From the IMG/VR virus record IMGVR_UViG_3300045988_012163: 43,046 bases of DNA; one strand, written 5' to 3'. The notes below the pieces were generated by a model. It searched no databases. It worked only from the letters and a program-made list of their open reading frames with translations, and was not told the DNA's origin. The position numbers were made by a program, and so were the translations under genes. Below are positions 8,896-38,086 of the stretch, in pieces. Position 1 is the first letter of the stretch. The number at the start of each line of letters is the position of its first letter. This stretch comes from a virus.

Positions 8896-10116
8896 CTATC
8901 TGTTCCAAAGTGGTGTATACTCGCGCCGATACGCCTTGTTCTTCAGGACCGTATAAGCAAAATACCGTGTTTCATCCATTGCGTGATCGTTTTCTTTGAT
9001 CGGCCTGTCATCGGCGGATTTTTCGTCCCACCGATACAGGCCAAACTCGCGGATGCAGTCTTTGCAATTTCGGTGTATCTTGATTACGCCGTCCTGCAAA
9101 AACCGCGCCGTAGTCATAATACCGTTGGTTACGTCGTTGTTGGCCTTTCGCACCATATAACCACGCCGCCGCAAAACCTCGATAAACGAGGCGGCAGACG
9201 GGTCAACGATGATGCTTTTAACGTTTGCCTCGCCGATGAGCTTTTTAATTTCGTCGGCGTATTCCTCGTCCGTCTTGTTCTTCTGGTTCTCGCGCCCGGA
9301 ATAGTAATACTCGCGGATGCGCGTGGCCGTCTTGCCATCCCATCGCCACAGCCCTGCGGAAAACGGGTTAAGTGTGCCGTAGTCGCAGGACACATAGTAT
9401 TCTCCCTTTTCCGGCAGCTCGTCCACAATGCAGCTCTCGTCAAACATGGGGTAGATCAGGCCCTCGGCCACTACCCACAAGCCGCGAATGTATCGGTCGT
9501 AGAACACGCCGGAAAACATTGCCTGATAGCGTTCCAGCGTCTTTTGAGATAAGCCGGGGTTGTCCGTCATTTCAAAATGCAGATACAGCGCGTTTCGCTC
9601 CTTGTTCCGCTGTATCCACTCTGTATAAAACCAGTGCTGTGGACTTCCCGGGTTGCAAGAAAACCACAGCTTTGCGCCGTCAACGGAGCAGCGGGTCAAG
9701 GCCTGTTCCACAAACGAACGCGGCATAAGCACCACCTCGTCCAGCAGCACCCCCGCCAGCGTGCGGCCTTGTATCAGCGTATAGCTGGCCTCGTCCTTTC
9801 CTCCGAACACCTCGAAGTAATTCGTCACGGCACCGCGCCGCACTTCCATAACCTTGTCGCCGCGCCGCCAGCGGATGATATAGCGCTCCTTTGCCAAACT
9901 CATCGCCGTAAACGGCACGATGATGTTCTTGGTGCAGCTATCCACCGTGCGTCCACACACGCCGAAACGCTGACCGCTGAAATTCTCCATCGCCCAGTGG
10001 ACGAACGCCCACATCATGATGGAGGTCTTGCCGGAACGCACGGCGCCGTCGCAGATCAGCGCGTCATACTTGGAATAGGAAAAAGCAAGGATTTTTGCTT
10101 GTTTTGGGCTAATCAT
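8896..10116 (-). CDS. terL: Terminase large subunit
   Basis: Walker A CDGAVRSGKT. The C-terminal nuclease-type region ends ...HAMDETRYF. Likely start MISPKQ at 10116, overlapping the methylase stop (ATGATTAG). Confidence 0.9.
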   Translation of the reverse strand: MISPKQAKILAFSYSKYDALICDGAVRSGKTSIMMWAFVHWAMENFSGQRFGVCGRTVDSCTKNIIVPFTAMSLAKERYIIRWRRGDKVMEVRRGAVTNYFEVFGGKDEASYTLIQGRTLAGVLLDEVVLMPRSFVEQALTRCSVDGAKLWFSCNPGSPQHWFYTEWIQRNKERNALYLHFEMTDNPGLSQKTLERYQAMFSGVFYDRYIRGLWVVAEGLIYPMFDESCIVDELPEKGEYYVSCDYGTLNPFSAGLWRWDGKTATRIREYYYSGRENQKNKTDEEYADEIKKLIGEANVKSIIVDPSAASFIEVLRRRGYMVRKANNDVTNGIMTTARFLQDGVIKIHRNCKDCIREFGLYRWDEKSADDRPIKENDHAMDETRYFAYTVLKNKAYRREYTPLWNR

Positions 10117-10540
10117 GTGGCATAAATACAACTACCATAGACGGAAATGGAGCAGAATTTTTACTTCCGCCAAATTTTAATCGTCCCCTAATAAACCGAA
10201 TTTCCACATTGTTTCTTTTGTATATGTAATCGTGGAACCATTTTGTATCTGTTCTGGCAGGAAGTAGCATTACGACGGTAGACCCGCTAACGGATGCAAA
10301 TAACGCTCTCCTCACCCATTGCCCGATGCCACGCCCATATGGAGGATTGCACCACACGGTTCCTTTCCACGGATGTTTCAGTCCGTCTTGTTCCTTCGTA
10401 TAGAACTTGTCGCACTTTGCATTTTCTGGAGTTGCACACACATCAAGTGTAAATTGAAATTCATTATTCAGTTTATCAAACAAATCTTGTGGCGTTTCCC
10501 ATAAGTCTGTTTTACTGGAAAACATTAATTCTGTATTCAT
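10109..10540 (-). CDS. Phage Dam-like N6-adenine DNA methyltransferase (copy 1), wedged between terS and terL
   Basis: NPPY motif (WCNPPYGRGIGQW), DVCATPENAKC, LPARTDTKWFHD. Paralog of 16107..16553. ATGA overlap with the terS stop. AT-rich codon usage. Confidence 0.8.
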   Translation of the reverse strand: MNTELMFSSKTDLWETPQDLFDKLNNEFQFTLDVCATPENAKCDKFYTKEQDGLKHPWKGTVWCNPPYGRGIGQWVRRALFASVSGSTVVMLLPARTDTKWFHDYIYKRNNVEIRFIRGRLKFGGSKNSAPFPSMVVVFMPHD

Positions 10541-26432: not shown

Positions 26433-27446
26433 ATGAAGATACCGAAAGCAAAACTGCTACCGTCCGGCAACTGGAATGTCAGCGTCATGGTAGACGGAAA
26501 GCGCGTGTCCGTCACAGCTCTTACCAAAAGGCAGGCAGAGAATGAAGCGGCCGCGTTGAAGTCCGGCGCAAAGTCTGCCGCTCGTGCGTCCGAGCGCACG
26601 GTTGGTGATGCTATCGACCGATATATTGACAGCAAGGACGCGATACTCTCCCCCTCCACCGTCAACGGGTACAGAAAACTCCGCAAGGCGGTTTTCCCGG
26701 AGCTGATGAGCGTTAAGTGCTCCGCGTTGACGCAGGATCGCGTGCAGCGTGCCGTGAATAAGATGGCGCGGGAAAAGTCGCCCAAGTACGTCCGCAACGC
26801 TTACGGCCTGTTTACTGCGACAATGGCAGAGGAATTCCCAGATAAAGTGTTCCGTATATCTCTCCCTCAGAAGGAAGCACCTAAAATCAAAATCCCTACC
26901 ATGGACGAGATCAGAATTCTACACGAAGACTGCAAGGGCACGGACTTTGAATTGCCTTTCCTTCTGGCTGTCTGGCTCGGTCTCCGTACATCGGAGATCA
27001 GAGGTCTAACATGGGATTGTCTTGACGGTGATATCCTGACGATTAAGCAAGCAATGGTAGACGGTGAGAACGGCCCGCAGCTCAAGCAGCCCAAAACTTA
27101 CAGTGGAAACAGAAAACTGAAAGTGCCGCCGTATATTATGGGGCTGCTTGACGCAACACCGCACACAGATGAGTATATTGTCCACGCAACCAGAAATGTC
27201 CTATATAAGCATCTGCAACGCGCGTGTGCCCGCTGCGGAGTTCAGCCGTTCCGCTTCCACGACCTCCGCCATGTAAACGCGTCGGTCATGCTCAGGCTCA
27301 ATGTCCCGGACAAATACGCAATGGAGCGCATGGGGCACTCCACAAACAACATGCTTAAAAACGTATATCAGCACACCATGGATGATAAAGCCGTAGCAGT
27401 GGCAGATGCCGTTGACGGCTTTTTTGAATCCGAATTTCATCTGTAA
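26433..27446 (+). CDS. int: Tyrosine integrase
   Basis: LRTSEIRGL (Arg), HDLRHVNAS, GHSTNNMLKNVYQHT (His/Tyr) catalytic signature. Adjacent attP. Confidence 0.9.
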   Translation: MKIPKAKLLPSGNWNVSVMVDGKRVSVTALTKRQAENEAAALKSGAKSAARASERTVGDAIDRYIDSKDAILSPSTVNGYRKLRKAVFPELMSVKCSALTQDRVQRAVNKMAREKSPKYVRNAYGLFTATMAEEFPDKVFRISLPQKEAPKIKIPTMDEIRILHEDCKGTDFELPFLLAVWLGLRTSEIRGLTWDCLDGDILTIKQAMVDGENGPQLKQPKTYSGNRKLKVPPYIMGLLDATPHTDEYIVHATRNVLYKHLQRACARCGVQPFRFHDLRHVNASVMLRLNVPDKYAMERMGHSTNNMLKNVYQHTMDDKAVAVADAVDGFFESEFHL

Positions 27447-27665: not shown

Positions 27666-27688
27666 CATCTGTAATTCCATCTGCAATT
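27666..27688. repeat. attP arm repeat CATCTGTAATTCCATCTGCAATT (copy 2)
   Basis: Direct repeat of 27438..27460, flanking the tRNA-like core. Confidence 0.7.
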
Positions 27689-28008
27689 TACTTTTCCAGT
27701 TTGCGCATGACGCTATTATAGACGCGCTCGTTTACAATTTTCAAGCTGTCCATCAGCTCGTCCATAATCACCCATGCCTTGTCTGGCGGAACGTCTGCCA
27801 CAGCCCGCAGAAAATCGCTGTCGCCGTATGTTTCGACGTTGACCGGCGCGGGCGCTGCGGAGTATGCCATTGGCAAAGCCCTCTCTCTGCTGCCGCTTTG
27901 CTGGTCCCGGATGGCATACAGCACGGCAAGGCGCTCATAGTTTGTCCAACTTGATTCTTCCGTCTCGAGGCGAGCTATCCAGCGATTGACCTCATTTTCG
28001 TCAACCAT
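27688..28008 (-). CDS. Hypothetical protein
   Basis: 106 aa. Last gene of a three-gene minus-strand set next to attP. Confidence 0.5.
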   Translation of the reverse strand: MVDENEVNRWIARLETEESSWTNYERLAVLYAIRDQQSGSRERALPMAYSAAPAPVNVETYGDSDFLRAVADVPPDKAWVIMDELMDSLKIVNERVYNSVMRKLEK

Positions 28009-28023
28009 AGGGGTGCACCCCCT

Positions 28024-28431
28024 TTAGCCCTCAATCGTGTCCATGCAACGCTGGATGGCTCTGCGGATGCTTTCGTCGTCGGCGTTGTCCAGCATTTCCT
28101 GCAACTGGCGTTTCATGTTGTCGATGCCGCCGTCGCGGGAGTAGTGGCCACGGACGTAGTGCGTGCCGCGTCTCGCATTGGACATGTCACGGTCATAAGC
28201 GCCGCGCATACCCGACTGCCAGTCTCCGTCGCGGGAATAGCGGCGAGAATAGTCTTCATCGCGGGAATAGCCGTCGTCCTCCAACATCTCGATTTTATCG
28301 ATGTTTTTGATGGTGTCCGTCAGCTTGTGCGCAATTTCGAGATCGCCCGCGCCAAGCTCACCCTTACGTGCCAGCTCGTCGAGTTCGTCGCACAGCATAT
28401 TACGCAGATCATACATTGCTTTCTTGCTCAT
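28024..28431 (-). CDS. Hypothetical charged protein (D/R/Y/S-rich centre)
   Basis: Start MSKKAMYDL at 28431, 7 nt after AGGAGA. Central DDGYSRDEDYSRRYSRDGDW...HYVRGHYSRDGG. Confidence 0.5.
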   Translation of the reverse strand: MSKKAMYDLRNMLCDELDELARKGELGAGDLEIAHKLTDTIKNIDKIEMLEDDGYSRDEDYSRRYSRDGDWQSGMRGAYDRDMSNARRGTHYVRGHYSRDGGIDNMKRQLQEMLDNADDESIRRAIQRCMDTIEG

Positions 28432-28444
28432 GTCCATTCTCCTT

Positions 28445-28876
28445 TCACGCGATTCTCTCAACCGTCAGGTTCGAGTTGGCGAAGTTGACGGCCTGATTGC
28501 TGGTGTTTTCCATTGCGACCGTCAGGAAGCAGCCTTTCGGGACGCAGACTTGCGCGGAAACGTAAATGTTAAAGTAGTTCCCTACCGCCGCAGGCGTGAC
28601 AGTCGCCGTTGCACTGGTCAGCGGCTCTCCGTTAATGGCAAGCGCCGCCGTGATGGCCTCAACCGTGCCTCCGGTGGGAATAGCGATGTTGCCGCCAAAG
28701 GAGACCCTAAACAGAGCGCGGTTTTGATTGGTGAGGCCGCGCAGCGTGATTTGGCCGCTTCCTTCTCTATGCACAATACACGCTTTCCCGCTTACCGCTG
28801 TAGCATCCAAAGGAACGCTTTGATTTGACGCAACAGTTACAATGTTGTTATTTACATATTCTGCCATAAATATCAT
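28445..28876 (-). CDS. BclA-C-terminal-domain / BxpB-like (TNF/C1q-fold type) protein
   Basis: About 140 aa all-beta sequence ending ...NSNLTVERIA, compared with BclA ...IIIEKVA and BxpB ...ALTVAQIS. No collagen-like repeat. Assignment is by recalled similarity only. Confidence 0.45.
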   Translation of the reverse strand: MIFMAEYVNNNIVTVASNQSVPLDATAVSGKACIVHREGSGQITLRGLTNQNRALFRVSFGGNIAIPTGGTVEAITAALAINGEPLTSATATVTPAAVGNYFNIYVSAQVCVPKGCFLTVAMENTSNQAVNFANSNLTVERIA

Positions 28877-29538
28877 TCCTTTCGTTTACAAATTCTTTTT
28901 GGCTTTTCAAATATTTCCTCGCCCGTCCATCCTCTCGAATGTCTATGATATGCAAGCGCTCTATCAAAATTAAGCAAGTCGCACCACTCGGCTATTGTCT
29001 TGGAATCCCCTTTATAAGTAACATAAACATTGTCTCGCCTGGTTCTACATTGCCATTTATTGTTTATCCAACGACAATTTTCAGGGCAATAGCCTTTTTC
29101 ATTGTCTTTTCTATCAAGCGATAAAGTTTCATTATACCCATTGGCTATCGCCCAATTATAAAAACAAGAAAAATCGTTTGCCCATTCGGAACATACCGAA
29201 ACGCCCCTACCGCCATATCTGCCGAAGTCTTTTGAACTCTGATTATTGCATCGGCATTTCATGCCATGCCATATACGATAAAGACGCGTATTTTTCATTC
29301 CGTGCGTTTTATGCTTATCTCCAGATAGTTTACCGGCCATACATCCACAACTATTTATCCTCCGGTCTTTTAACTGGTCAGAACGAACGCGAACATACTT
29401 TCCGCAATCACACTTACAAAGCCATCTTCTGGTGTCTTTGTTTATACTATATCCCTCTCGCTCATTTGCCGGAATGAAACGGACAACAGTTAAATAGTTT
29501 ATGCGCTGGCCTGTGTAATCTACTTTTGGTGTTTTCAT
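28873..29538 (-). CDS. Homing-endonuclease-like DNA-binding protein (paralog of 13774..14373)
   Basis: NTRLYRIWHGMKCRCNNQSSKDFGRYGGRGVSVCSEW and LSLDRKDNEKGYCPENCRW. Strongly AT-rich relative to the flanks. Confidence 0.5.
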   Translation of the reverse strand: MKTPKVDYTGQRINYLTVVRFIPANEREGYSINKDTRRWLCKCDCGKYVRVRSDQLKDRRINSCGCMAGKLSGDKHKTHGMKNTRLYRIWHGMKCRCNNQSSKDFGRYGGRGVSVCSEWANDFSCFYNWAIANGYNETLSLDRKDNEKGYCPENCRWINNKWQCRTRRDNVYVTYKGDSKTIAEWCDLLNFDRALAYHRHSRGWTGEEIFEKPKRICKRKE

Positions 29539-29651: not shown

Positions 29652-29813
29652 ATGGCCCAAAACGAACTAAAGAACAGAGCGCGTTTCTCTACCACCATAA
29701 GCTTCGAGACAGAGCGAGCGCTAAAAGAGTATTCAAAGGAAACCGGTGTTCCAATTAGCAAAATTGTTGACAAAGCAATTCGCCAATATTTAGAAAGCAA
29801 AGGAAATACTTAA
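29652..29813 (+). CDS. Ribbon-helix-helix (CopG/Arc-like) protein, 53 aa (below cutoff)
   Basis: TAGGAGGTGTGTT-ATG. MAQNELKNRARFSTTISFETERALKEYSKETGVPISKIVDKAIRQYLESKGNT is a typical RHH beta-alpha-alpha pattern. Confidence 0.65.
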   Translation: MAQNELKNRARFSTTISFETERALKEYSKETGVPISKIVDKAIRQYLESKGNT

Positions 29814-29845
29814 AAAATACAGCGGCGAGGCAATAGCCCCGCCGC
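29812..29845 (-). terminator. Intrinsic terminator of the 31888..29927 operon (also closes the RHH gene)
   Basis: Minus strand reads GCGGCGGGG-CTATTG-CCTCGCCGC-TGTATTTTTT. A second hairpin lies at 29877..29908. Confidence 0.7.
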
Positions 29846-29926: not shown

Positions 29927-30661
29927 TCAGCAGCCGCAGCCCTGATTGCAGCCGCAGCCGCCGTAACCGCTGCCTGCCCACGGGTTACAGGTAATGTAGG
30001 CAGGCGAAGGGCACGGACGAAGCTGAGAGATCAGATAGTTGTTCTGCGCGGCCTGAGATGCCGCCAGCTTCAGATTCTGATTCTCGGTCTGGAGGTCGGA
30101 CAGTTTGCTCTGCGTCAGGAAGTCGAGGATGGCGCGGCTGTTCTGGTTGTTCGCGTCAATAATGTCGCGCGTGGCGTTCTGTACGGTGTTGCGCGTGTCG
30201 CACGCCTGCGTCGCCATGTCGTAGCGCACCTGGGCGATAGCTGCACGGTTTTCGCAGCAACACTCAGCGGCCTGCATCTGCATGGCAGTCAACTGCTGCA
30301 TGAGAGCCGCCTGCTGGTTACTGCGGGAAAGCTCAGCCTGTGCAAAGCCGTTGGCCATTGCCATGTTGGTGCCGTTGACAAGCTGCGCCTGCTGGTAAAA
30401 TCCGTCGCAAAGGCCCTGATTTACACTGTCGATCTTACGCTCGACATTAGCAAAATCAGAGGTCAGCACATAGCCATCGACCACGCCGCCGGAATTGCCA
30501 GCGTTGTTGCCCCAGCCGTTGCCGCCCCAGCCAAAGACGGCAAAAATGAGGAAGAGAATAATGAGCCATGCGCCGTCACCGCCCCAGCCGAAACCGCCGC
30601 CGTTGTTGGTAGGCGAGACCGGCATGGTCAGCATGGGAGCGCCGCCATCGGAAAGAGACAT
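29927..30661 (-). CDS. Unknown membrane protein: G/W-rich N-terminus plus TM, Q-rich coiled coil, Cys/Gly-rich C-terminus
   Basis: GGGFGWGGDGAWLIILFLIFAVFGWGGNGWGNNAGNSGG. Then ...QQAALMQQLTAMQMQAAECCCENRAA... Ends CNPWAGSGYGGCGCNQGCGC. Confidence 0.6.
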   Translation of the reverse strand: MSLSDGGAPMLTMPVSPTNNGGGFGWGGDGAWLIILFLIFAVFGWGGNGWGNNAGNSGGVVDGYVLTSDFANVERKIDSVNQGLCDGFYQQAQLVNGTNMAMANGFAQAELSRSNQQAALMQQLTAMQMQAAECCCENRAAIAQVRYDMATQACDTRNTVQNATRDIIDANNQNSRAILDFLTQSKLSDLQTENQNLKLAASQAAQNNYLISQLRPCPSPAYITCNPWAGSGYGGCGCNQGCGC

Positions 30662-30695
30662 AGTATCACTCCTTTGAAAGATTTTTATTCATCAA

Positions 30696-30709
30696 ATCGT
30701 GGCCACGAT
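30696..30709. promoter_or_regulatory. 14-bp perfect palindrome ATCGTGGCCACGAT
   Basis: Read directly from the sequence, in the 104-nt gap between 30766..30972 and 29927..30661. Confidence 0.4.
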
Positions 30710-30739
30710 GTTGATTTTGCCAAAAGTTGAACAAACACT

Positions 30740-30768
30740 TTGCTTAAATCTTGCTTAGACTTTGCTTA
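30740..30768. repeat. Three direct TTGCTTA repeats at 11-bp spacing
   Basis: TTGCTTA at 30740, 30751 and 30762. Confidence 0.6.
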
Positions 30769-30972
30769 TTGCATCAGACTTTGAAACTGCTTTGCCATCT
30801 GTTGCAGCTGGTTTAACTGCGCCTGAGAGAGCTTACCGCTCTGCAAAAGTTTTTCAACCTCCGCTTTGGGGTCACCATGAAAATTTGCCTTGAATTGCTG
30901 GAACTGCTGCAGCATCTGCATGAAGCCGTTCCCTCCGCCGAGCGCTCCGAAAAAGGGATTATTCATCGCCAT
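30766..30972 (-). CDS. Unknown Q-rich 68-aa protein
   Basis: MAMNNPFFGALGGGNGFMQMLQQFQQFKANF...QAQLNQLQQMAKQFQSLMQ. Confidence 0.5.
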   Translation of the reverse strand: MAMNNPFFGALGGGNGFMQMLQQFQQFKANFHGDPKAEVEKLLQSGKLSQAQLNQLQQMAKQFQSLMQ

Positions 30973-31393
30973 CGTCCTCCTTGTGCTTCTTCTTGCCCTT
31001 TATTTCGCCCACAAGCGCCGCCAGACGGTCGAACTCATCGCGGGTGACAAACTTATCATCCATTTTTTTAGTATCATGAGGTTTGTTTTCAGCGTCTTCC
31101 GTGTAATTAAACGTCCTCATTGGAATAGGCGTGCCGCTTGCGTCTCGCTCCTTGATGTGGAAAACCATCGAGTTTGTTTCAAAGATAATTACTCGAGAAT
31201 TTGGGGCGACCATAAACCCATTTGCTTCTTCTTTTCCTCCGCTAATCCATACAACGCTTGTCTGCATTTGCTGCGGTTGAGCCGTTTGCGCAGGCATTTG
31301 TGGCTGCATCATCTGTTGCTGCCGCATCTGCATGAGGTTGTCCGGCATCGGCGGCGGATAATAGGGGTTGAAATAGGGATATGCCATGTTCAT
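30959..31393 (-). CDS. Unknown protein with P/Q/M-rich N-terminus and beta-rich core
   Basis: MNMAYPYFNPYYPPPMPDNLMQMRQQQMMQPQMPAQTAQPQQMQ, then VVWISGGKEEANGFMVAPNSRVIIFETNSMVFHIKERD, then a charged tail. Confidence 0.55.
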   Translation of the reverse strand: MNMAYPYFNPYYPPPMPDNLMQMRQQQMMQPQMPAQTAQPQQMQTSVVWISGGKEEANGFMVAPNSRVIIFETNSMVFHIKERDASGTPIPMRTFNYTEDAENKPHDTKKMDDKFVTRDEFDRLAALVGEIKGKKKHKEDDGDE

Positions 31394-31773
31394 TCCTCCG
31401 TTTCTTTTACCCAGTAATAAAGCGGGATTTCGTTCTCACTGTTCCAGCTGTCGTAGATCGTCCCATCCTGCACGCACACTACATGTCCGGAGAGGGCGAG
31501 AATATACGTACCGTGCGGGTGGTCATCGGCAAACCTCCCGACCGTGTAGCAGTCCGGGCAAGTGTCCGGCATGATGTAGCGCCGATAGCCGAGAGACCGC
31601 AGATACGCGCCCCAACAGGCATTTGCATTGGGAAGATCGCCGTCTAAGTATCCCTGTATGCACAGAGCTAAATAGATCTCGCCCCAGTCTTTCCCGGTCG
31701 CCTTGCAAATCGCGCGCACGGTGCAGTCGCTGACGTTGCGTCCGTTTGGATTCGGGTTGAAATAGCTATACAT
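31390..31773 (-). CDS. Putative papain-like cysteine peptidase fold protein
   Basis: Start MYSYFNPNPNG at 31773 (ATGTATAG overlap). Candidate triad C17 (SDCTVRAI), H97 (LSGHVV), D108/N111 (YDSWNS). Confidence 0.45.
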   Translation of the reverse strand: MYSYFNPNPNGRNVSDCTVRAICKATGKDWGEIYLALCIQGYLDGDLPNANACWGAYLRSLGYRRYIMPDTCPDCYTVGRFADDHPHGTYILALSGHVVCVQDGTIYDSWNSENEIPLYYWVKETEE

Positions 31774-31888
31774 GGAACATCTCCGCAAAGTAAACGTATG
31801 TTCTCAATTCGTCAGGGTCAGGAAAAAGCGCGAGAATGTCCATCGCCATTTGCTCGGTAAATCCACAAGCCAAAAGTCGTTCGTACAT
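31769..31888 (-). CDS. Small hypothetical protein (39 aa, below cutoff)
   Basis: AAGAAGGTG RBS. MYERLLACGFTEQMAMDILALFPDPDELRTYVYFAEMFHV. First ORF of the operon. Confidence 0.4.
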
Positions 31889-32067: not shown

Positions 32068-32337
32068 ATGAAGCTTACCGATGGAAAGAAGACCGTGGAG
32101 ATCAAGATCCAGCGTTGGAACGGTTCCGGCTATGACCCTGATTGGAGCGCCGATTACTTTAACGCAGGCTCCCTCCCGTACGATGAAGAGACCGACACCT
32201 ACACCGTCGAAGATGTAGATTACTGCATCGAGACCGCGAACAAAACAAACGAAGACGGCGCTTGCGGCAAGTACGACGAGAACGGCGATCTTGTCCGCGA
32301 CGAAGACATGTTCGTTTTTGTCGAGGAGCTGAATTAA
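32068..32337 (+). CDS. Small strongly acidic protein (anti-defence candidate)
   Basis: AGGAGG RBS. 89 aa with runs DEETD, VEDVD and DEDMFVFVEE. Confidence 0.6.
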   Translation: MKLTDGKKTVEIKIQRWNGSGYDPDWSADYFNAGSLPYDEETDTYTVEDVDYCIETANKTNEDGACGKYDENGDLVRDEDMFVFVEELN

Positions 32338-32351
32338 AGGAGGAGTTTACC

Positions 32352-32729
32352 ATGACCGATAAGCAGTTTTACAGCATCTTTTCGGACGCGCTCTCGAACG
32401 AGGGCGCGCCCCGCGAAGCCTTTGTCTCCGATTGGGCCCTTAGTTCCATTTGGGACGACGATAATCAAGATGTTCCGGAGGAGCGTATTGCCGAGGTCGG
32501 TGGTATTTGGGATGTTGCTCATCTATCGATCTGCGACATCCGCCAGTATACGGGTCTGTCTCAGGCGAAATTTGCAACTCGCTTTTGCATCCCTCGCCGA
32601 TCTATCGAGGACTGGGAGTCCGGTGCAAGGCACTGCCCCGACTATCTGCGGTTGTTGCTTGCACAGGCCGTTGGATTGTACAACGATCGTCGGTTTTGCG
32701 GCCAGATCAATTCTCGCCATGCGGACTAA
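32352..32729 (+). CDS. HTH protein (Aca/antitoxin-like)
   Basis: AAAGGAGG RBS, start MTDKQ. C-terminal HTH ICDIRQYTGLSQAKFATRFCIPRRSIEDWESGARHCPDYL. Confidence 0.6.
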   Translation: MTDKQFYSIFSDALSNEGAPREAFVSDWALSSIWDDDNQDVPEERIAEVGGIWDVAHLSICDIRQYTGLSQAKFATRFCIPRRSIEDWESGARHCPDYLRLLLAQAVGLYNDRRFCGQINSRHAD

Positions 32730-33309
32730 AAAATGTGTAACCTGCGGCAAGATTTTTTCCACCGATCGCGCAGAGCAGGCGAAGTGCGAGGACTGCCTTG
32801 CCGCATCCCGGTCAACCACCCTGCGCACGCGAACCTGCCACACCTGCGGGGCCAACTTCATCGGAGGGCCCAGAGCCAGCTACTGCCCAACCTGTCGGGC
32901 AGAGCGGCAGAAGGCCCAGAAGCAAAAGTACCGGGCCACCGGTTTTTCCCGGCATCTGGGAGATATCGATAACTGCGTGATCTGCGGTGGAGAGTATGTC
33001 ATCCAATCTGGCTTGCAAAAGTATTGTCCAAAATGCGCCCCGGATGCCGTCCGCGAGATCGACCGCGCGCAGTCAAAAAACTGGAATACCGCACACGATT
33101 ACTACATAAAACGCCGCAAAAAATCCCGCAGCGGCGTAAAGGTCTGTGTTGTCTGCGGCCGGGAGATAGTGCCCGGTACCCCTACCGTCACCTGTTCCCC
33201 CGAGTGCGCCGCCGCCCACCGAAAAGAGGTTCAGAAACGCGCGGACGCCAAGCGCCGGAGCGGGACGAAATCAAAGCAAAACGAAGTCAAAAAAGAGAGC
33301 ACCGATTAA
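32719..33309 (+). CDS. Basic protein with four CxxC...CxxC zinc-ribbon repeats
   Basis: CVTCG..CEDC, CHTCG..CPTC, CVICG..CPKC, CVVCG..CSPEC. K/R-rich tail. Overlaps the upstream gene by 11 nt. Confidence 0.55.
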   Translation: MRTKKCVTCGKIFSTDRAEQAKCEDCLAASRSTTLRTRTCHTCGANFIGGPRASYCPTCRAERQKAQKQKYRATGFSRHLGDIDNCVICGGEYVIQSGLQKYCPKCAPDAVREIDRAQSKNWNTAHDYYIKRRKKSRSGVKVCVVCGREIVPGTPTVTCSPECAAAHRKEVQKRADAKRRSGTKSKQNEVKKESTD

Positions 33310-33551
33310 CCTCGGTGCTCTCTTTGCCCATCCGCGATTTTTTTGTATGCTCGCCTGCGGCAGCGGTTGACCGCCTCCGGCGACAGGTGCAGCGCTGCAC
33401 ACACTTGCGCGTAGCTCTTGCGCCGCACGTCGCACTCGATAATGCACGCCGCCTCGTCCTGCGGCAGCTCGAAGGATAAGATATACGCCACGGCCCGCTT
33501 GGGGGCCATAGAGGATAATTGCGCGCGGATTGACCTGTGCTGACTGTCCAT
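33306..33551 (-). CDS. Sigma-70 region-4-like small HTH protein
   Basis: 81 aa. PKRAVAYILSFELPQDEAACIIECDVRRKSYAQVCAALHLSPEAVNRCRRRAYKKI. Weak RBS. The long ORF to 33746 overlaps the endolysin gene. Confidence 0.45.
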   Translation of the reverse strand: MDSQHRSIRAQLSSMAPKRAVAYILSFELPQDEAACIIECDVRRKSYAQVCAALHLSPEAVNRCRRRAYKKIADGQREHRG

Positions 33552-33628
33552 GCCCGTGTAGGGCTTGCAGAGGCGCTTGCGCGTGGGCTTTCGCCGCCCG
33601 CTCCTTCCTGTGCCCGAATCGGACACCG

Positions 33629-34237
33629 TTATTTTGTTGCTCTCTGGATCATCGTCACGACTTCCTGCCGCGTGATAAGTCTCTGCGGCGCGCTGCCGTC
33701 CGTAATGCCAGCCGCCTTTGCCGCCGCCCAGTCCTTCGCCGCCCACGAAGAGACGGGCTTGGTGCCGAGCTGCGATAAATAGCTGTCCATCATCTTGTTA
33801 AACGTTGCCTGATCCATGTACTCCTCCATTTCCGGCGGGTACTTCCCCGCCAAGATCATGCTCCCTGTGTATCGCATATGGTCGTCCCATTGAAAATGCG
33901 GCTTGTCGGGGAATTTCTTCCAGTCGCCCCCCCACGAAAAACCGACTTGCTTGCCGATCTGCCCGCAGCGGGCGAAGAACGACGGATCGTCGTACTCATG
34001 CCCCTTGACGTTTTTGCAGATGTCGAACGCCAGCCCCGCCTTAACGCCGTGGAACGTCGGCCTTGTCGCGTTTTTCGCCGCGTAGCCCATGCGCGCAAGA
34101 TAGCGCTGATACTCGTCATCTCGCACCGTCTCCGTCACCAGAACCGGAAGCCCCGCTTCCTTGCAGAGGTCGAGGAAGATGACACAGTTTGCGCGCACGT
34201 CCGCCCGCAGGTCAGCAATGTCCCTACTGTGATACAT
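33629..34237 (-). CDS. Endolysin, peptidase M15 (VanY/LD-carboxypeptidase-like)
   Basis: Start MYHSRD at 34237. TFHGVKAGLAFDI (S/T-x-H-x-x-G-x-A-x-D type) and KPHFQWD motifs. Follows the holins. Confidence 0.75.
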   Translation of the reverse strand: MYHSRDIADLRADVRANCVIFLDLCKEAGLPVLVTETVRDDEYQRYLARMGYAAKNATRPTFHGVKAGLAFDICKNVKGHEYDDPSFFARCGQIGKQVGFSWGGDWKKFPDKPHFQWDDHMRYTGSMILAGKYPPEMEEYMDQATFNKMMDSYLSQLGTKPVSSWAAKDWAAAKAAGITDGSAPQRLITRQEVVTMIQRATK

Positions 34238-34469
34238 CGCTGTCACCCTTGCCGTCCTCGTCCTTGCTTTTGTTGTAGCTGGACGTCGACACGCCGATGA
34301 GCGCGCCGATAAACAGCGCCACGGCGCTGATGGTGGTCGTGACCTGCTCGGTGTACCCCCACCCCCACACACCCGCGAGGGCGGCGTAGAGGCCGGAGCA
34401 GGCGGGCAGTACGATGAGCACGAGCCACTTGAGCACATCGTACACCTTGTTATTCAGTTCAAATTTCAT
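34224..34469 (-). CDS. Holin
   Basis: Start MKFELNNKVYDVLKWLVLIVLPA at 34469. Two TM segments and a charged C-tail KSKDEDGKGDSD. Confidence 0.7.
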   Translation of the reverse strand: MKFELNNKVYDVLKWLVLIVLPACSGLYAALAGVWGWGYTEQVTTTISAVALFIGALIGVSTSSYNKSKDEDGKGDSDVSQ

Positions 34470-34707
34470 TGTTCTTCTCCTTTCGTTTCCGTCCAACGAT
34501 AATTTCTACCAGTGTCAACAGCCCAGTAAAGGCTTCAATGATGCCGCCCGTACCCAGCAGGTACGGGAAGAGGTTGTCCCACTGCCACCCTTTGATGCTG
34601 TAAAAGATGACCGTGTAGATCACAAAAGCGGCGATGAAAATGCCAACGATAATCAAAATGATGTTCCTCGTTCGCAATTTTGACGCCTTTTTGATAAGGT
34701 GCTTCAT
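34459..34707 (-). CDS. Second holin-like two-TM protein
   Basis: Start MKHLIKK at 34707. TM segments IILIIVGIFIAAFVIYTVIFY and GGIIEAFTGLLTLVEIIV. Basic tail. Confidence 0.55.
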   Translation of the reverse strand: MKHLIKKASKLRTRNIILIIVGIFIAAFVIYTVIFYSIKGWQWDNLFPYLLGTGGIIEAFTGLLTLVEIIVGRKRKEKNNEI

Positions 34708-35006
34708 CCGACCGCCCCACTCAGCAGCCACGCGATAAAAGCGCCCGCCAGCGCCGCGAGAGCCTTGTCGACCAGCCCGTCCCAGCGCTTCCCTGCCTTG
34801 CCCGTAATGGCTTTCACGTCCTCTTTGATCTCCTTGACATCGCCCTCGACGGTCTCCTGCTTGGTCGCCAGCACCTCGACCGACGTTGCCAGCCTGTCAA
34901 GCGCCGTTTGGTGCTCCTGTAACTCATTGATTCGGTGTGTATTGCTCTTGCATCGGCTTTCGATCAGCGCGATCTCTGCATCATCGTAGTGCTTTGCATT
35001 ATCCAT
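34704..35006 (-). CDS. xhlA: XhlA-family lysis protein
   Basis: Coiled coil plus C-terminal TM (ALAALAGAFIAWLLSGAV). Lies upstream of the holin and endolysin, as in the PBSX-like cassette. Confidence 0.6.
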   Translation of the reverse strand: MDNAKHYDDAEIALIESRCKSNTHRINELQEHQTALDRLATSVEVLATKQETVEGDVKEIKEDVKAITGKAGKRWDGLVDKALAALAGAFIAWLLSGAVG

Positions 35007-35028: not shown

Positions 35029-35856
35029 TTAGACCGCCGTGAAATAGTTCCCTACCAGCTCGTGCGGCAAATACTGCAAGACGATCTTCCCGCCCGCGGC
35101 CTCGCCCGTGCGCTCGCAGAGGTACAGCTTAGTGTCCTCGGGGTCTTTGTAATAAAGACCATAGGTGTACTCCATACCACGAGCGGCCGGAATCGGGTCA
35201 TCTTGCGTGCCCGCGTGGTCGACGTTGATGATCGTCCACACGGCAGGGGTGGAGTGCGGCGGCCAGTTCTCTTGCGTGGTGTGGCCCTGACCTTTGTTGA
35301 CGCGGTAGACGTGCAGCACGCCGCTTTCGTCCATATCGCTGCGGCGGTCGCCGGGCTTGACGGTCTCGCCGATGTGATCCGCCCAGCGCGGGAACAACTC
35401 GGGCGACTTCGCCGCCTCGCCGTCAGAGAGCGACGCGCTGGCCTGCTCGATGACCGGGCGCAGCCTTGCCGCGCGCTGCGGCGTGATGCTCTGGCCGACC
35501 AGCGCCGTAACGGTCGCCTCCGAAAGCTCGGATTCCGTGGGCTTTCCCATCTTAACGCTCACCGTACCATTGCGGTGGTCAGTGATGTCGCCAGCAAGGC
35601 TGTACTCGCTGTTGTCGTACTCGTTGACGACCTCTTTGGTCTCGCCTGTGGGCTTGCCCTGCTCGTCCAACACGTCCACCATGTCGCGCTGCACAATGCT
35701 CCACGGGGTGTTGTCGGGCAGCAGCGCCGCGACCTCGGCGGAGGTCATCGTGAGTGTGATGGCCTTGGTGTCGCGCTCGCCCCACGAGCGGTCTTTGGGG
35801 TTGCCGTTGATCTCTGCGGGGTATTCGGTGTTGTTGACTTTGATGTAGATTGCCAT
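35029..35856 (-). CDS. Tail-fibre-associated / carbohydrate-binding-like structural protein
   Basis: 275 aa. Last structural gene before lysis. The C-terminal W/Y/H-rich region resembles small carbohydrate-binding modules. Confidence 0.4.
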   Translation of the reverse strand: MAIYIKVNNTEYPAEINGNPKDRSWGERDTKAITLTMTSAEVAALLPDNTPWSIVQRDMVDVLDEQGKPTGETKEVVNEYDNSEYSLAGDITDHRNGTVSVKMGKPTESELSEATVTALVGQSITPQRAARLRPVIEQASASLSDGEAAKSPELFPRWADHIGETVKPGDRRSDMDESGVLHVYRVNKGQGHTTQENWPPHSTPAVWTIINVDHAGTQDDPIPAARGMEYTYGLYYKDPEDTKLYLCERTGEAAGGKIVLQYLPHELVGNYFTAV

Positions 35857-35873
35857 GAATATCAGTCCTTTCC

Positions 35874-36662
35874 TTAGAAACAGAAGCCGAAGGACACGCT
35901 CAGCTCCTCGCTCGCGTAGTCGGCGTCGGCGATGCCGTTGAGGCCGGCAAGGCAGAACTTCTCGGAGTTGCTGTTATCCGGAGAGCGCCCCCACCAGTCG
36001 GCATTGATGCCGTTTCGGGTCTTTTTTTTGTTGTTGTTGTCCGCCTTGTAGTAGTCGTACTGCGTTCCCTCGCCCTTATAGGAATAAGTGACGCTGCCGA
36101 AAATCTCGATCTCGCTCAGCAGGAACAGCTTGTCCGCCGTGGTTTTTGGGCGGATGCTGCTGCTCAACATTGTCCGCTTATTCACCTCCCGGATGCTGTT
36201 CTGTACTTCTATCGGCATCAGCGCCAGAATGGCAGGCAAGTGCGTCTGCCGCATGGCGCAGCTCGTCCAGCCGCTCTTGCTGGTGTCGGAGCTATTCATC
36301 TGCTTTGTGTCCGCGTAGCAGTCGTGCAGCTGGAAGGTCAGCGGTGCCTTTCCGCCCGCAGTGTAGGTGTCGTGGTTTTTGCCGATGATGTCGATCTGGT
36401 AGTCCATTCCGTTGATGGTCATGGGCTTCTGGTCTTCCACCTTCCACGTGTCCGGCACTTCGTTATTGTGGCACGCTGCGATGATCTGCTCCCACGTATT
36501 GTTGGCAAACACAGGGTCGTAGGACGGCGCAAACGTGATATCATACCCCGTCCCGCCGATAAGCGTCCTGCCCTTCTTGATGCTGTACACAGTGCCATTG
36601 ACGAGGCATTTCCCGCCCTTTACTTCGTAGGCCGTACCATTGATGAGGGTCTTATGGCTCAT
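35874..36662 (-). CDS. Tail/receptor-binding accessory protein (unknown family)
   Basis: 262 aa. N-terminal repeated motifs LINGTAYEVKGGKCLVNGTVYSIKKGRTLIGGTGYDI. Confidence 0.45.
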   Translation of the reverse strand: MSHKTLINGTAYEVKGGKCLVNGTVYSIKKGRTLIGGTGYDITFAPSYDPVFANNTWEQIIAACHNNEVPDTWKVEDQKPMTINGMDYQIDIIGKNHDTYTAGGKAPLTFQLHDCYADTKQMNSSDTSKSGWTSCAMRQTHLPAILALMPIEVQNSIREVNKRTMLSSSIRPKTTADKLFLLSEIEIFGSVTYSYKGEGTQYDYYKADNNNKKKTRNGINADWWGRSPDNSNSEKFCLAGLNGIADADYASEELSVSFGFCF

Positions 36663-36823
36663 GCGCGCACCTCCACAGGCAACCCGCGTAGCCGCGCGTA
36701 CTCGGTCACGGCGTAGTGCAGCGGCGTACCTTCCTTGATGTGCACAGGCGCACCGTCCTTGAAAACGTACATAGCCTTGACCCTGTGCTTCTCGCCGCGC
36801 TCGTCTTTGATGTAAATCTCCAT
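36659..36823 (-). CDS. Small hypothetical protein (54 aa, below cutoff)
   Basis: AAGGAGG RBS. MEIYIKDERGEKHRVKAMYVFKDGAPVHIKEGTPLHYAVTEYARLRGLPVEVRA. ATGA overlap. Confidence 0.45.
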   Translation of the reverse strand: MEIYIKDERGEKHRVKAMYVFKDGAPVHIKEGTPLHYAVTEYARLRGLPVEVRA

Positions 36824-36835
36824 CTCCGCCCCTCC

Positions 36836-38086
36836 TTAGCCGTACACCCAGTTGATAGCGTAGTTCTCGGTGGGCGTGGTCTCCGTTGCAACCAGCGTCT
36901 GCTTGACGATGTTTCCGCTCGCGATATAGTCGCTGCCACGCGTCGCCGCCACCAGCCCGCCCGAGCCATTGCCCTTGATAAGAGAGGTGGTGGATGGGAC
37001 AGACGGGATGACTGTCGTGTCTGGAAGTGCGCCTACTTCAGAGGCTGTATAACTCGGCTTTGTCGCCGCTTTTGCCCACTCAGGCACGGTCGGGTCGGTT
37101 TCCTTGTAGCTCTGCAAAGCGCTGTCAGCCTTGCTCAAACTCGTCTGCACGTCTCTTGCAAGGTCAGATTTTGCCACTGTCGACTTAAACGCCAGACTGC
37201 CGAGATCGCTAAACCACTTTGCGATTTTCCCGAACAGCACGGAGAGCTTTTCGCCCGTCGCAATGTTTGTGCGGGTACTCGTTGCTGTGAACGCCGCCGT
37301 GACGTTGCTGCCGTCGCCGGTTTTGCCCAGCTTATCGACGAGTGCCGAGTACACGCCGCCAGACTGTACAGGGTTGGTGCTGCCCTGCGTAGGCGTTGCG
37401 TCGGTAGTTACCTTGACGTCCTTGATAGCATTATCAATGTATGCAAAGATGTCCTGGTGCTTGTTTTGAGGGTCATACACTGAGGCCAGCATGTCACCCG
37501 TACCAGCACCAGAAGCGCCACGGCAATAGCCTGCGTCATAGCTCGTGCCGTTCGACAGCGTCACGATAAGGTGATAGTCGCTCTGCCGGATGGTGATGCC
37601 AGTAATCGTGGGAGCATCTGCGCCGGGATTGCCCTGTGGACCAATTTCACCCTGAATACCCTGCTTACCCTGTTCACCCTGAATACCCTGCTTACCCTGT
37701 TCACCCTTGTCGCCTTTTTCGAGCACAAGGTTAAGCACCTGATTCGGAGCTTCGCCGGTAATGGTCGCGCTCGCCACCTTCCCGGACGTGACCGAGCCGA
37801 TGGTCAGCACGTTTGCGGGGCCGGTCGCGCCAGTCGCGCCGGTGTCGCCCTTGCTGCCCTGCGGGATGCCAAGCGCCAGCGTACCAGTCGACTTTTCGTA
37901 AGTTGCCGTTGCCGAGCTTCCAGCGGGTAGCGTTGTCACCGTGACTGATACAACACTCAGCGTGACAAAGTTCAGCAGCGTTTCGCCTTTCAGCTTCTTC
38001 GCCTTGCCGCTCTGCTCAAGCACAAAAAGGTCTTCGCCCGTGATCTGTAACGCTTGCGTGAGGTCGGAAATTGCTTTATCAGCCAT
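36836..38086 (-). CDS. Tail fibre with collagen-like G-x-y repeats
   Basis: GDKGEQGKQGIQGEQGKQGIQGEIGPQGNPGAD and GDTGATGATGPAN segments. 416 aa. Confidence 0.8.
   Translation of the reverse strand: MADKAISDLTQALQITGEDLFVLEQSGKAKKLKGETLLNFVTLSVVSVTVTTLPAGSSATATYEKSTGTLALGIPQGSKGDTGATGATGPANVLTIGSVTSGKVASATITGEAPNQVLNLVLEKGDKGEQGKQGIQGEQGKQGIQGEIGPQGNPGADAPTITGITIRQSDYHLIVTLSNGTSYDAGYCRGASGAGTGDMLASVYDPQNKHQDIFAYIDNAIKDVKVTTDATPTQGSTNPVQSGGVYSALVDKLGKTGDGSNVTAAFTATSTRTNIATGEKLSVLFGKIAKWFSDLGSLAFKSTVAKSDLARDVQTSLSKADSALQSYKETDPTVPEWAKAATKPSYTASEVGALPDTTVIPSVPSTTSLIKGNGSGGLVAATRGSDYIASGNIVKQTLVATETTPTENYAINWVYG
37647..37700. repeat. 27-bp tandem duplication inside the collagen-like segment
   Basis: CACCCTGAATACCCTGCTTACCCTGTT occurs twice in tandem, with a partial third copy. 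Confidence 0.9.

Follow-up and report, generated by a model that had tools for sequence, protein, structure and literature searches.

The systems closest to the gene cassette studied in this work are the morons, among them HK97 gp15 and the Llp-type exclusion genes of T5, which are placed in late regions; the Rz-type spanins; the C-terminal domain of BclA, a C1q/TNF-like trimer of the Bacillus exosporium nap (PF18573); and the enzymes of clan CA (C39, Josephin, NlpC/P60-type amidases such as Tae4, transglutaminase-like). The cassette lies in a 43,046-nucleotide stretch of virus DNA (IMG/VR virus record IMGVR_UViG_3300045988_012163), which as a whole is called the window below. Its first five genes, named here pep40, D, C, B and A, occupy positions 29927-31888 of the minus strand and are followed by genes for a BclA_C-like protein and two proteins designated X and Y. 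Comparison with related genomes showed a portable, late-operon-linked cassette, nearly always retained and allelically diverse, which combines low-complexity proteins with a predicted papain-like enzyme. To judge from these comparisons it is most likely a late, envelope-acting or virion-linked specificity module.

The window copy resembles a moron in being self-contained, with its own promoter match and terminator, and in lying at the prophage end by the integrase; the cassette also moves between backbones, has a membrane protein and co-varies with tail genes. It differs from morons in consisting of seven to eight genes instead of one or two, in being retained by 71 of 72 close relatives, in being embedded elsewhere in late operons without signals of its own, and in occurring in apparently virulent phages. 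Protein A shares with the i-spanins an N-terminal transmembrane (TM) segment, a long polar, probably helical region with conserved Cys, and the adjacency of its gene to lysis genes, but its predicted topology is the opposite, it has no sequence similarity to them (Pfam, PHROG) and its hosts are mostly Clostridia. One allele of the BclA_C-like protein matches the BclA domain over its full length; however, the phage proteins are bare domains of 133-143 aa without collagen-like repeats and the score is sub-threshold. D has, like the clan CA enzymes, its putative catalytic Cys at the N-terminus of a helix and a sheet with His and Asp, whereas its length of 127 aa is unusually short, its fold family is confined to phages and lacks a characterised member, and it gives no significant match in sequence (Pfam, E ≤ 1) or in structure (Foldseek against PDB, E ≤ 0.001).

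The operon and the larger cassette

The five genes and the signals around them are the following.

31766-31888, minus strand: pep40, 40 aa including the Met
31390-31773, minus strand: D, 127 aa, phrog_3754
30959-31393, minus strand: C, 144 aa, phrog_21718
30766-30972, minus strand: B, 68 aa (family 66-68 aa), phrog_22984
29927-30661, minus strand: A, 244 aa, phrog_16490
32047 to 32019, minus strand: putative sigma-70-like promoter 5' of the peptide gene, a consensus match (TTGCCC-17-TATAAT)
29812-29845, minus strand: intrinsic terminator-like hairpin of 10 bp (9 GC) at 29845-29822 with a T-run, after A

These five genes are a tightly coupled single operon ending at a strong terminator. In the window pep40 and D overlap by 8 nt, D and C by 4 nt (ATGA) and C and B by 14 nt, counted from the first ATG of B; a second ATG, 6 nt downstream of the first, has the better Shine-Dalgarno (SD) spacing. 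A gap of 104 nt separates B from A. Over about 100 loci the junctions are kept at -8, -1 and -8, followed by a gap before A with a median of 57 nt. GGAG-type ribosome-binding sites precede all five genes, and all five are under purifying selection (median dN/dS against homologues 0.07 for pep40, 0.10 for D, 0.32 for C, 0.11 for B and 0.17 for A). The terminator hairpin is kept in relatives, where it stands directly before the BclA_C-like gene (e.g. L036 8798-8821).

An earlier note on this DNA, made from the letters alone, had described five minus-strand open reading frames (ORFs), a 104-nt gap before the 244-aa gene and a terminator at the end, all of which we found; the peptide gene is also present, its product, given there as 39 aa, being 40 aa long when the Met is counted. 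The low-complexity composition described there was confirmed as well. B contains 20.6% Q against a window background of 3.4%, residues 1-46 of C contain 24% Q, 20% P and 20% M, and A has 28% G and 6% W in residues 1-65, 14% Q and 11% N in residues 66-215 and 21% C and 24% G in its Cys/Gly tail (216-244), a strong bias for B, C and A relative to the remaining window proteins. That none of the products resembles a standard phage function agrees with our searches: Pfam, NCBIfam and PADLOC scans of the module proteins gave no assignment, the PADLOC defence models having no match at E ≤ 0.01 among all eight; PHROG matches were all to clusters of 'unknown function', with no structural annotation for any member; and PDB sequence searches with A, D, C and the profiles of the BclA_C-like protein and pep40 gave no match.

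As a description of the unit, five genes proved too few, as the cassette continues with the BclA_C-like gene, X and Y, and a gene for a small sigma-like protein often precedes it.

33306-33548, minus strand: protein of about 80 aa from Met (MDSQHR...) with sigma-70 region 4 only, called sigma-r4-like; Pfam Sigma70_r4_2 E 6.4e-9, above the cut-off
28445-28876, minus strand: BclA_C/C1q-like protein, 143 aa, phrog_20016, following A in 80 of 80 loci
28024-28461, minus strand: X, R/D/Y/S-rich with helical ends, phrog_28802, probable start at 28437, in 78 of 80 loci
27688-28008, minus strand: Y, 106 aa, dN/dS 0.07, in 61 of 80 loci

Gene order was traced by tblastn and iterated profile searches in 80 IMG/VR loci picked through A, in 20 bacterial contigs and in Dulem viruses 33 and 35, Butyrivibrio virus Ceridwen and MT835739. 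A second sample consisted of 80 loci picked solely by a close endolysin homologue (88-100% identity), 72 of which were evaluable. The order is fixed: (sigma-r4-like) - pep40 - D - C - B - A - BclA_C-like - X - Y, that is, seven to eight genes. D, C, B and the BclA_C-like gene accompany A in every A-selected locus, and the five are collinear in all 80; X, Y and pep40 were found in 78, 61 and 41 of these loci, respectively. Ceridwen, MT835739, both Dulem viruses and Clostridia genomes share this order, even where the identity of A falls to 33%, so that a check proposed in the earlier note, co-occurrence across genomes, turned out positive far beyond the window phage. A sigma-r4-like homologue lies directly upstream of pep40/D in 59 of the 80 A-selected and in 49 of 49 endolysin-selected loci. 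A long GTG-initiated ORF (33306-33746, minus strand) runs into the endolysin gene at its end, but what is made from it is probably the sigma-70 region 4 protein of about 80 aa; shorter versions of it occur inside the copies of the module located in head gene clusters (see below).

In most relatives endolysin, sigma-r4-like, pep40, D and the following genes are on one strand, thus the module would normally be the distal end of the late transcription unit. In the window, this arrangement is interrupted by one insertion, and two further ones lie within the cassette.

32068-33309, plus strand: block of three genes for an acidic 89-aa protein, a 125-aa HTH protein and a Cys4-rich/HNH-like protein, with PHROG matches
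29652-29813, plus strand: RHH (Arc-like) gene between A and the rest of the cassette, Pfam RHH_3 E 3e-12
28873-29538, minus strand: free-standing HNH endonuclease gene, phrog_374 E 2e-62, with its own promoter-like site (29608 to 29580)

The plus-strand block stands between the sigma-r4-like gene and the module; with all three genes it was found, among 80 loci, only in the window phage and the identical contig L010. Homologues of the HTH protein occur in 10 of the 80 loci, on the opposite strand in only four of those; the third protein has many CxxC pairs and a weak match to an HNH-endonuclease PHROG. This insertion appears to have severed the window module from the late operon, and the module would therefore rely on the promoter match in the junction. 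The 'divergent control region' from which the operon was earlier thought to be read is thus secondary, being the product of an insertion peculiar to the window phage and its twin.

Both genes that separate A from the BclA_C-like gene in the window, RHH and HNH, are insertions, the former being present in just 2 of 109 loci. Related HNH genes or a cytosine methyltransferase gene are found in relatives at the B/A, A/143-aa and 143-aa/X junctions or 5' of pep40. The gaps flanking A appear as insertion hot spots, having received HNH genes (four junctions in total), an Arc-like RHH gene and, in a Lachnospiraceae prophage, a DNA cytosine methyltransferase gene (window 28873-29538, minus strand, and 29652-29813, plus strand; L001 5280-5831; L004 7445-8239; L108 9120-10154).

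Allelic types

Searches with the window type, called type 1, left about 30% of the endolysin-selected loci apparently without the module, their slot being held by other genes. These genes turned out to be a second, divergent cassette (type 2; L133 11011-13199 and 23 further loci, e.g. L112, L114, L121 and L134) in the same slot. Its A-like protein (180 aa, phrog_16490 E 3.7e-6) has the G-flanked hydrophobic segment, the CCC motif and the Cys tail; its BclA_C-like protein (133 aa) matches Pfam BclA_C (PF18573) from end to end with E 2.5e-6 and 27.8 bits, below the cut-off of 38; the other products have 134, 114 and 103 aa, the last being rubrerythrin-like and helical. The 72 evaluable loci comprise 41 of type 1, 24 of type 2, 6 hybrids and one (L141) with neither. 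With the apparent absences explained by type 2, the idea of a sporadic accessory module could be dismissed, as could that of a strictly core or essential one, which is contradicted by L141. An A-family gene with a BclA_C-like gene is present in 71 of these 72 loci. Type 1 itself contains divergent alleles of C and of the 143-aa protein; C, for example, has about 50% identity alongside values of 80-95% for D, B and A. By sequence comparison, what stays constant is the pair of an A-family gene and, after it, a BclA_C-like gene, and the alleles of this core are highly divergent and recombine.

The allele goes together with genes at a distance. In a comparison of L112-L191 with window positions 35029-38086, a homologue of the tail gene tail275 was present in 29 of 41 type-1 and 5 of 24 type-2 loci, and one of fiber416, which encodes a collagen-like fibre, in 21 of 41 and 3 of 24, while the endolysin and XhlA-like genes between the tail genes and the cassette stay more than 90% identical. 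This association may be due to function, to the host or to simple linkage.

The window 143-aa protein has no direct match in Pfam or PDB. Its family aligns with the type-2 family over 133 columns (hhalign probability 73%, E 3e-5), and through this transitive link it may be described as a remote BclA_C/C1q-like domain. At 28445-28876 neither GXX repeats nor a region for exosporium targeting at the N-terminus is encoded, just a domain of 143 aa. The BclA-like neighbour mentioned in the earlier note is thus a probable remote relative of the BclA domain, without a collagen-like region.

Position in other phages

That the cassette is self-contained and portable between phage backbones was shown by sequence comparison: a 90%-identical A was found with the whole module behind an unrelated Amidase_3 endolysin. 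Three lineages (Dulem virus 35, MT835739, a prophage of Lachnospiraceae bacterium JLR.KK009) carry the module between the genes of the MuF minor capsid protein and the scaffold/major capsid proteins. D starts there at, or just past, the MuF stop codon, and the interior of the MT835739 module contains no promoter-like or terminator-like site above chance.

A head-cluster position invites the explanation that the module is associated with the virion, the BclA_C-like trimer being the head of a fibre or decoration, A its stalk or an ejected protein whose hydrophobic segment enters the membrane of the next host, and D an effector packaged with MuF. BclA_C/C1q-type trimers form fibre tips; no module product has a signal peptide; the A gene of crAss-like phages adjoins virion structural genes; near-universality, allelic diversity and co-variation with tail genes are typical of fibres and decoration proteins; and HNH genes stand at several module junctions, homing HNH endonucleases often targeting structural regions. 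This has to be set against the location in the window and in most relatives, where the structural genes and the lysis cassette have both been passed before the module begins, and where hairpins and a terminator bracket it. Moreover, the strongly hydrophobic, G/W-flanked segment of A is what one expects of a membrane anchor, the 150 best A representatives include no fusion of A with BclA_C (the longest has 340 aa), one close relative (L141) does without the module, and PHROG annotates no member as structural. We regard a virion role, the main rival of the interpretation favoured below, as unlikely, if still deserving serious consideration.

Other occurrences bear on the view that the genes form a lysogenic-conversion (moron) operon. 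Butyrivibrio is not known to form spores, nor are the Bacteroidales hosts to which crAss-like phages are usually assigned. The full module is present in Butyrivibrio virus Ceridwen, for which only a lytic cycle was observed and which its authors concluded to be virulent (PMC7372960). In three genera of crAss-like Suoliviridae a full-length A gene lies before structural genes and after those for a holin, a DUF7841 protein and a LysB/FtsL-like protein. C. perfringens phages have counterparts to the last two thirds of A, towards its C-terminus; for these phages our literature search found no functional or proteomic data on A.

The conversion hypothesis, in the form given by the earlier note, holds that the operon would be expressed from the prophage and build a self-assembling Cys/Gln-rich envelope or spore-surface layer related to coat or exosporium. 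The place of the module between the lysis genes and the integrase/att end, in the window and in many relatives, agrees with this. So do the consensus matches to a promoter and a terminator in the window copy, the remote BclA_C-like neighbour, the absence of signal peptides, which would fit assembly in the mother-cell cytoplasm, and a composition presumably reminiscent of several coat proteins, with much Cys in A, Gln in B and C and R/S/Y in X, and with D as a Cys-His-Asp enzyme comparable to the coat transglutaminase. A typical moron it is not, however. Sporadic presence was not seen among the 72 loci, of which only L141 lacks the pair, the allele being kept by the other 71; the promoter region was created by a window-specific insertion, and the copies inside late head clusters have neither signal. 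The presence of the module in Ceridwen, judged virulent, and of A in crAss-like phages, also argues against conversion. The spore-coat interpretation is weakened further, as it depends on composition and the remote BclA_C fold: there is no collagen-like region and no match to a coat or exosporium family. The G-rich, hydrophobic N-terminus of A has a composition presumably similar to that of YjcZ, but the family model (TIGR01732, NCBIfam) gave no match at E ≤ 1 among the module proteins. Altogether this explanation seems to us distinctly improbable.

The crAss-like loci have features of their own. The gene immediately before the A homologue encodes a DUF7841 protein whose tail is rich in Arg/Gly/Asp/Tyr (L003 2741-3376, L110, L111), and TAG is read there as a sense codon (48 in-frame TAG in 18 genes). 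We considered whether these phages have an extended module, and rejected it, since comparison of their h146, h187, DUF7841 and LysB-like proteins with the BclA_C-like protein, C, X, Y, B and D by hhalign gave probabilities of at most 0.6%. In Clostridia, DUF7841 occurs near the module in just one locus, where the domain is fused to the Y protein (L098 9659-10156). No paper on DUF7841 was found.

Proteins A, B and C

The A family is large, with at least 1645 clusters at 50% identity (E ≤ 1e-3), lengths of 220-340 aa and thousands of near-identical copies in human-gut assemblies. A is the only module protein with a hydrophobic segment (KD19 1.8 at residue 31), and no product of the module has a signal peptide; A is thus predicted to be a single-pass membrane protein. 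Its layout is an acidic N-tail, the G/W-flanked hydrophobic segment (about 31-47), a Q/N-rich region, CCC at 134-136, the sequence RPCPxPAYxTCNP and a Cys/Gly tail. Among 116 representatives CCC is present in 108, SQxxQ in 98, P-x-P-A/S-Y/F in 87 and a CxC tail in 75. The AF2 model, made from a 62-sequence alignment, has a mean pLDDT of 44.6 and only the TM helix is modelled. The G/W-rich N-terminus, the single TM segment and CCC, all mentioned earlier, are therefore recognisable in the sequence, whereas the proposed coiled coil found no backing in the model.

In 91 representatives the N-tail has a mean of 0.43 K/R and 2.8 D/E residues, and the 30 residues after the TM segment have 1.34 K/R; K/R of the C-flank exceed those of the N-tail in 67% of the sequences and are fewer in 4%. 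This suggests an N-out/C-in topology, by which the Cys-rich part of A would share the cytoplasm with its partners, none of which has a signal peptide. No holin family in Pfam or PHROG is matched by A, and the idea that A itself is the holin was discarded; the window has a Phage_holin_Dp1 gene at 34224-34496.

C has a conserved core behind an N-terminus rich in Y/P/Q/M and diverges more than any other module protein (32-54% identity where its neighbours have 80-95%). B has a conserved N-terminal motif, NP(F/L)FxA(L/M)GGG. An N-P-aromatic motif, with a background of 0.18 per 1000 aa, recurs at the termini of A, B, C and D. NP[YWF] is found within the last 45 residues of A in 62 of 116 representatives and elsewhere in A in 1 of 116; it occurs in B in 66 of 73 (N-terminus) and in C in 68 of 88, and D has NPNP in 100 of 120. 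In the window the motifs are at aa 4-9 of D, 7-12 of C, 4-8 of B and 225-228 of A. They may constitute a common recognition or targeting signal.

Cis elements around A

30696-30709, minus strand: hairpin (palindrome) ATCGTGGCCACGAT between B and A, with TTGATGAATAAA and then the SD sequence after it

The end of this hairpin lies 28-36 nt before the start of A in most loci, the position being the same in about 60 related loci; a (T)GATAAAT-like motif and a strong SD sequence come after it. At least 12 unrelated stem sequences were seen, some with G.U pairs or real loops; the position is kept and the sequence covaries. Type-2 loci share the sigma-r4-like protein (62-88% identity), yet their hairpin sequence is unrelated, which points to a structural RNA role and not to a sequence-specific operator; the notion that the sigma-r4-like protein binds the palindrome 5' of A is weakened by the same observation. 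The two stem-loops bracketing A would be consistent with differential expression or stabilisation of the A message.

D and pep40

In the AF2 model of D (pLDDT 93.9) helix 17-26 is followed by further helices and a sheet. Cys17 is at the start of the helix, His97 is the first residue of strand 97-102 and Asp108 the last of strand 105-108. All three are invariant in 95 sequences, and D16, R20, W30 and W110 are likewise invariant. The triad proposed earlier for the 127-aa protein thus fits a papain-like topology, and at the level of fold a papain-like protein with a Cys/His/Asp triad is supported by the model. Of the profile and structure searches suggested for its characterisation, the modelling gave the fold, and no search gave a significant match to a known family. 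Pfam (E ≤ 1) and the PDB sequence search returned nothing for D, and Foldseek against PDB had no match at E ≤ 0.001, the best being Josephin-2 (E 0.53, TMq 0.45); the weak neighbours, Josephin-2, TssM, Tae4 and PaTox, are papain-like enzymes. Against BFVD, Foldseek found 21 uncharacterised phage proteins from many hosts at E ≤ 1e-3. D occurs without other module genes in Tsamsa-like Bacillus phages, Geobacillus GBK2 and Lak phages.

The pep40 family (40-49 aa, M-Y-E-R-L-x-x-C/L-G-F-T-x-Q-M-A...H-V; 35 distinct homologues in 55 loci) is sized for two or three helices, and the 8-nt overlap of its gene with D is conserved. No Pfam or PDB match and no relatives of pep40 were detected; the PDB profile search also lent no support to a UBA-like fold, which was dropped.

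One could imagine that D is a C39-like peptidase which removes Gly-Gly leaders from B, and perhaps from A, with pep40 as its inhibitor or immunity partner. A weak BFVD match of D is annotated as a C39 domain (E 0.017), B has the conserved N-terminal ...F-x-A-L/M-G-G-G motif, pep40 and D are translationally coupled, and the Cys17...His97...Asp108 spacing with the D-C dipeptide presumably resembles that of C39 peptidase domains. These likenesses are outweighed by others: D has no Pfam C39 match at E ≤ 1, no C39 structure is among its Foldseek PDB matches, the module has no ABC transporter, the putative leader of B has only about 13 residues and lacks the usual leader pattern, and B is hydrophilic and Gln-rich, unlike known bacteriocins. 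We therefore consider peptide processing of this kind highly improbable.

Genome setting and hosts

The window is the complete, circularly permuted genome, about 43 kb, of a temperate siphophage, of which the IMG/VR contig L010 is an essentially identical (100%) twin. The late genes are on the minus strand, in the order terminase, portal, MuF-like, major head, major tail, and then continue across the window ends.

8896-10131, minus strand: terminase
7511-8860, minus strand: portal
4820-6505, minus strand: MuF-like minor head protein
2407-3309, minus strand: major head protein
635-1222, minus strand: major tail protein
40923-42473, minus strand: tape measure, then tail and fibre genes
34704-35006, minus strand: XhlA-like protein of the lysis cassette
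34224-34496, minus strand: Dp-1-type holin, Phage_holin_Dp1, E 9.5e-22
33629 to about 34237, minus strand: endolysin of the lysis cassette
26433-27446, plus strand: tyrosine integrase, convergent with the cassette, of which Y is the last gene before it

The listed endolysin ORF (33629-34438, minus strand, 269 aa) reaches into the holin gene with an N-terminal extension rich in Pro/Ser/Arg/Cys; conservation begins at Met68 (MYHSRDIADL...), which leaves a protein of about 202 aa. A homologue of protein A with 84% identity carries the NCBI name Hominenteromicrobium sp. (Oscillospiraceae), and genome scans placed relatives in Oscillospiraceae, Ruminococcus bicirculans, Dysosmobacter and Lachnospiraceae.

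In Dulem virus 33, Ceridwen, the Amidase_3 backbone and the window group, nothing stands between the lysis cassette and the module behind it. The module might therefore be an accessory of lysis, A and its partners being spanin-like or holin-regulating and D a second hydrolase of the cell wall or S-layer, set free at lysis. The three Suoliviridae genera, with A after a holin and a LysB/FtsL-like protein, would agree with this, and the weak fold matches of D include the peptidoglycan amidase Tae4. Yet the lysis cassette of the window is already complete, with XhlA-like protein, Dp-1-type holin and endolysin; the hosts are Clostridia, which are monoderm and need no spanin; the predicted topology of A, C-terminus inside, is opposite to that of an i-spanin; the head-cluster lineages have the module far from the lysis genes; and D has no significant match to any peptidoglycan hydrolase family. 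A lipoprotein partner of a spanin was not seen, although no systematic search for lipobox genes was made. A lysis function is, in our judgement, quite improbable.

A possible role of the cassette

The functional interpretation we favour is a tentative one, which we think possible without holding it probable: expression late in infection, a largely cytoplasmic A, an assembly at the membrane that comprises A, B, C, the BclA_C-like protein, X and Y, an action of D on the Gln-rich members, and a specificity exerted at the envelope. The cassette would be transcribed as the distal end of the late (virion/lysis) unit; in the window, where the insertion cut it off, its own promoter would be used. A would insert with its short acidic N-tail outside, leaving its Q/N- and Cys-rich 190 residues in the cytoplasm, and might nucleate the assembly with B, C, the BclA_C-like trimer, X and Y, all of which lack signal peptides. 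The partners may recognise one another by the N-P-aromatic motifs that their termini have in common. Co-produced with pep40, D would cleave the Gln-rich partners or cross-link them in a transglutaminase-like manner. The assembly would then act late at the cell envelope in a way specific to the phage or the host type, for example by excluding related phages or by conditioning release. Such an action would explain both the diversification of the alleles and their co-variation with the distal tail genes.

Several points weigh against this interpretation. We infer all of its functional steps. The position in head clusters and the BclA_C-like fold fit a virion role equally well, and the co-variation with tail genes could reflect physical linkage or a shared host. 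The cassette is dispensable for at least the L141 phage. The topology of A is called from charge bias alone, and with the poor AF2 model its coiled coil and Cys clusters are without structural support. D stands alone in Tsamsa-like Bacillus, Geobacillus and Lak phages and may have an independent role.

In a more far-reaching version, the phage would make a covalently stabilised protein layer or condensate at the host membrane, in which A, membrane-anchored and rich in Gln/Asn and Cys, self-assembles with prion-like and Arg/Asp/Tyr-rich partners and the C1q-like trimer, D as the dedicated papain-like enzyme cross-links or processes the Gln-rich components, and the rapidly diversifying alleles set the specificity between phages or between phage and host. 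We think this improbable. If true, it would be a previously unrecognised late function shared by siphophages of gut Clostridia and, as far as A is concerned, by crAss-like phages.

The components of the cassette are already known as PHROG clusters, all of 'unknown function', and the cassette as a whole matches, in our searches, no characterised phage system. Since no Pfam, NCBIfam or PADLOC model and no solved structure places the module, it appears to lie outside the known kinds. It is kept almost universally and yet swapped between divergent alleles, that is, it behaves like a specificity determinant, but it is none of the known ones: neither a receptor-binding protein, nor an immunity repressor, nor a recognised exclusion gene. 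The A family spans phages of Oscillospiraceae and Lachnospiraceae, C. perfringens phages and a crAss-like family. Knowledge of the function of the cassette would annotate five PHROG families, one DUF-linked neighbourhood and a phage-wide group of miniature papain-like enzymes, and might bring to light an infection step not yet recognised in the dominant phages of the human gut.

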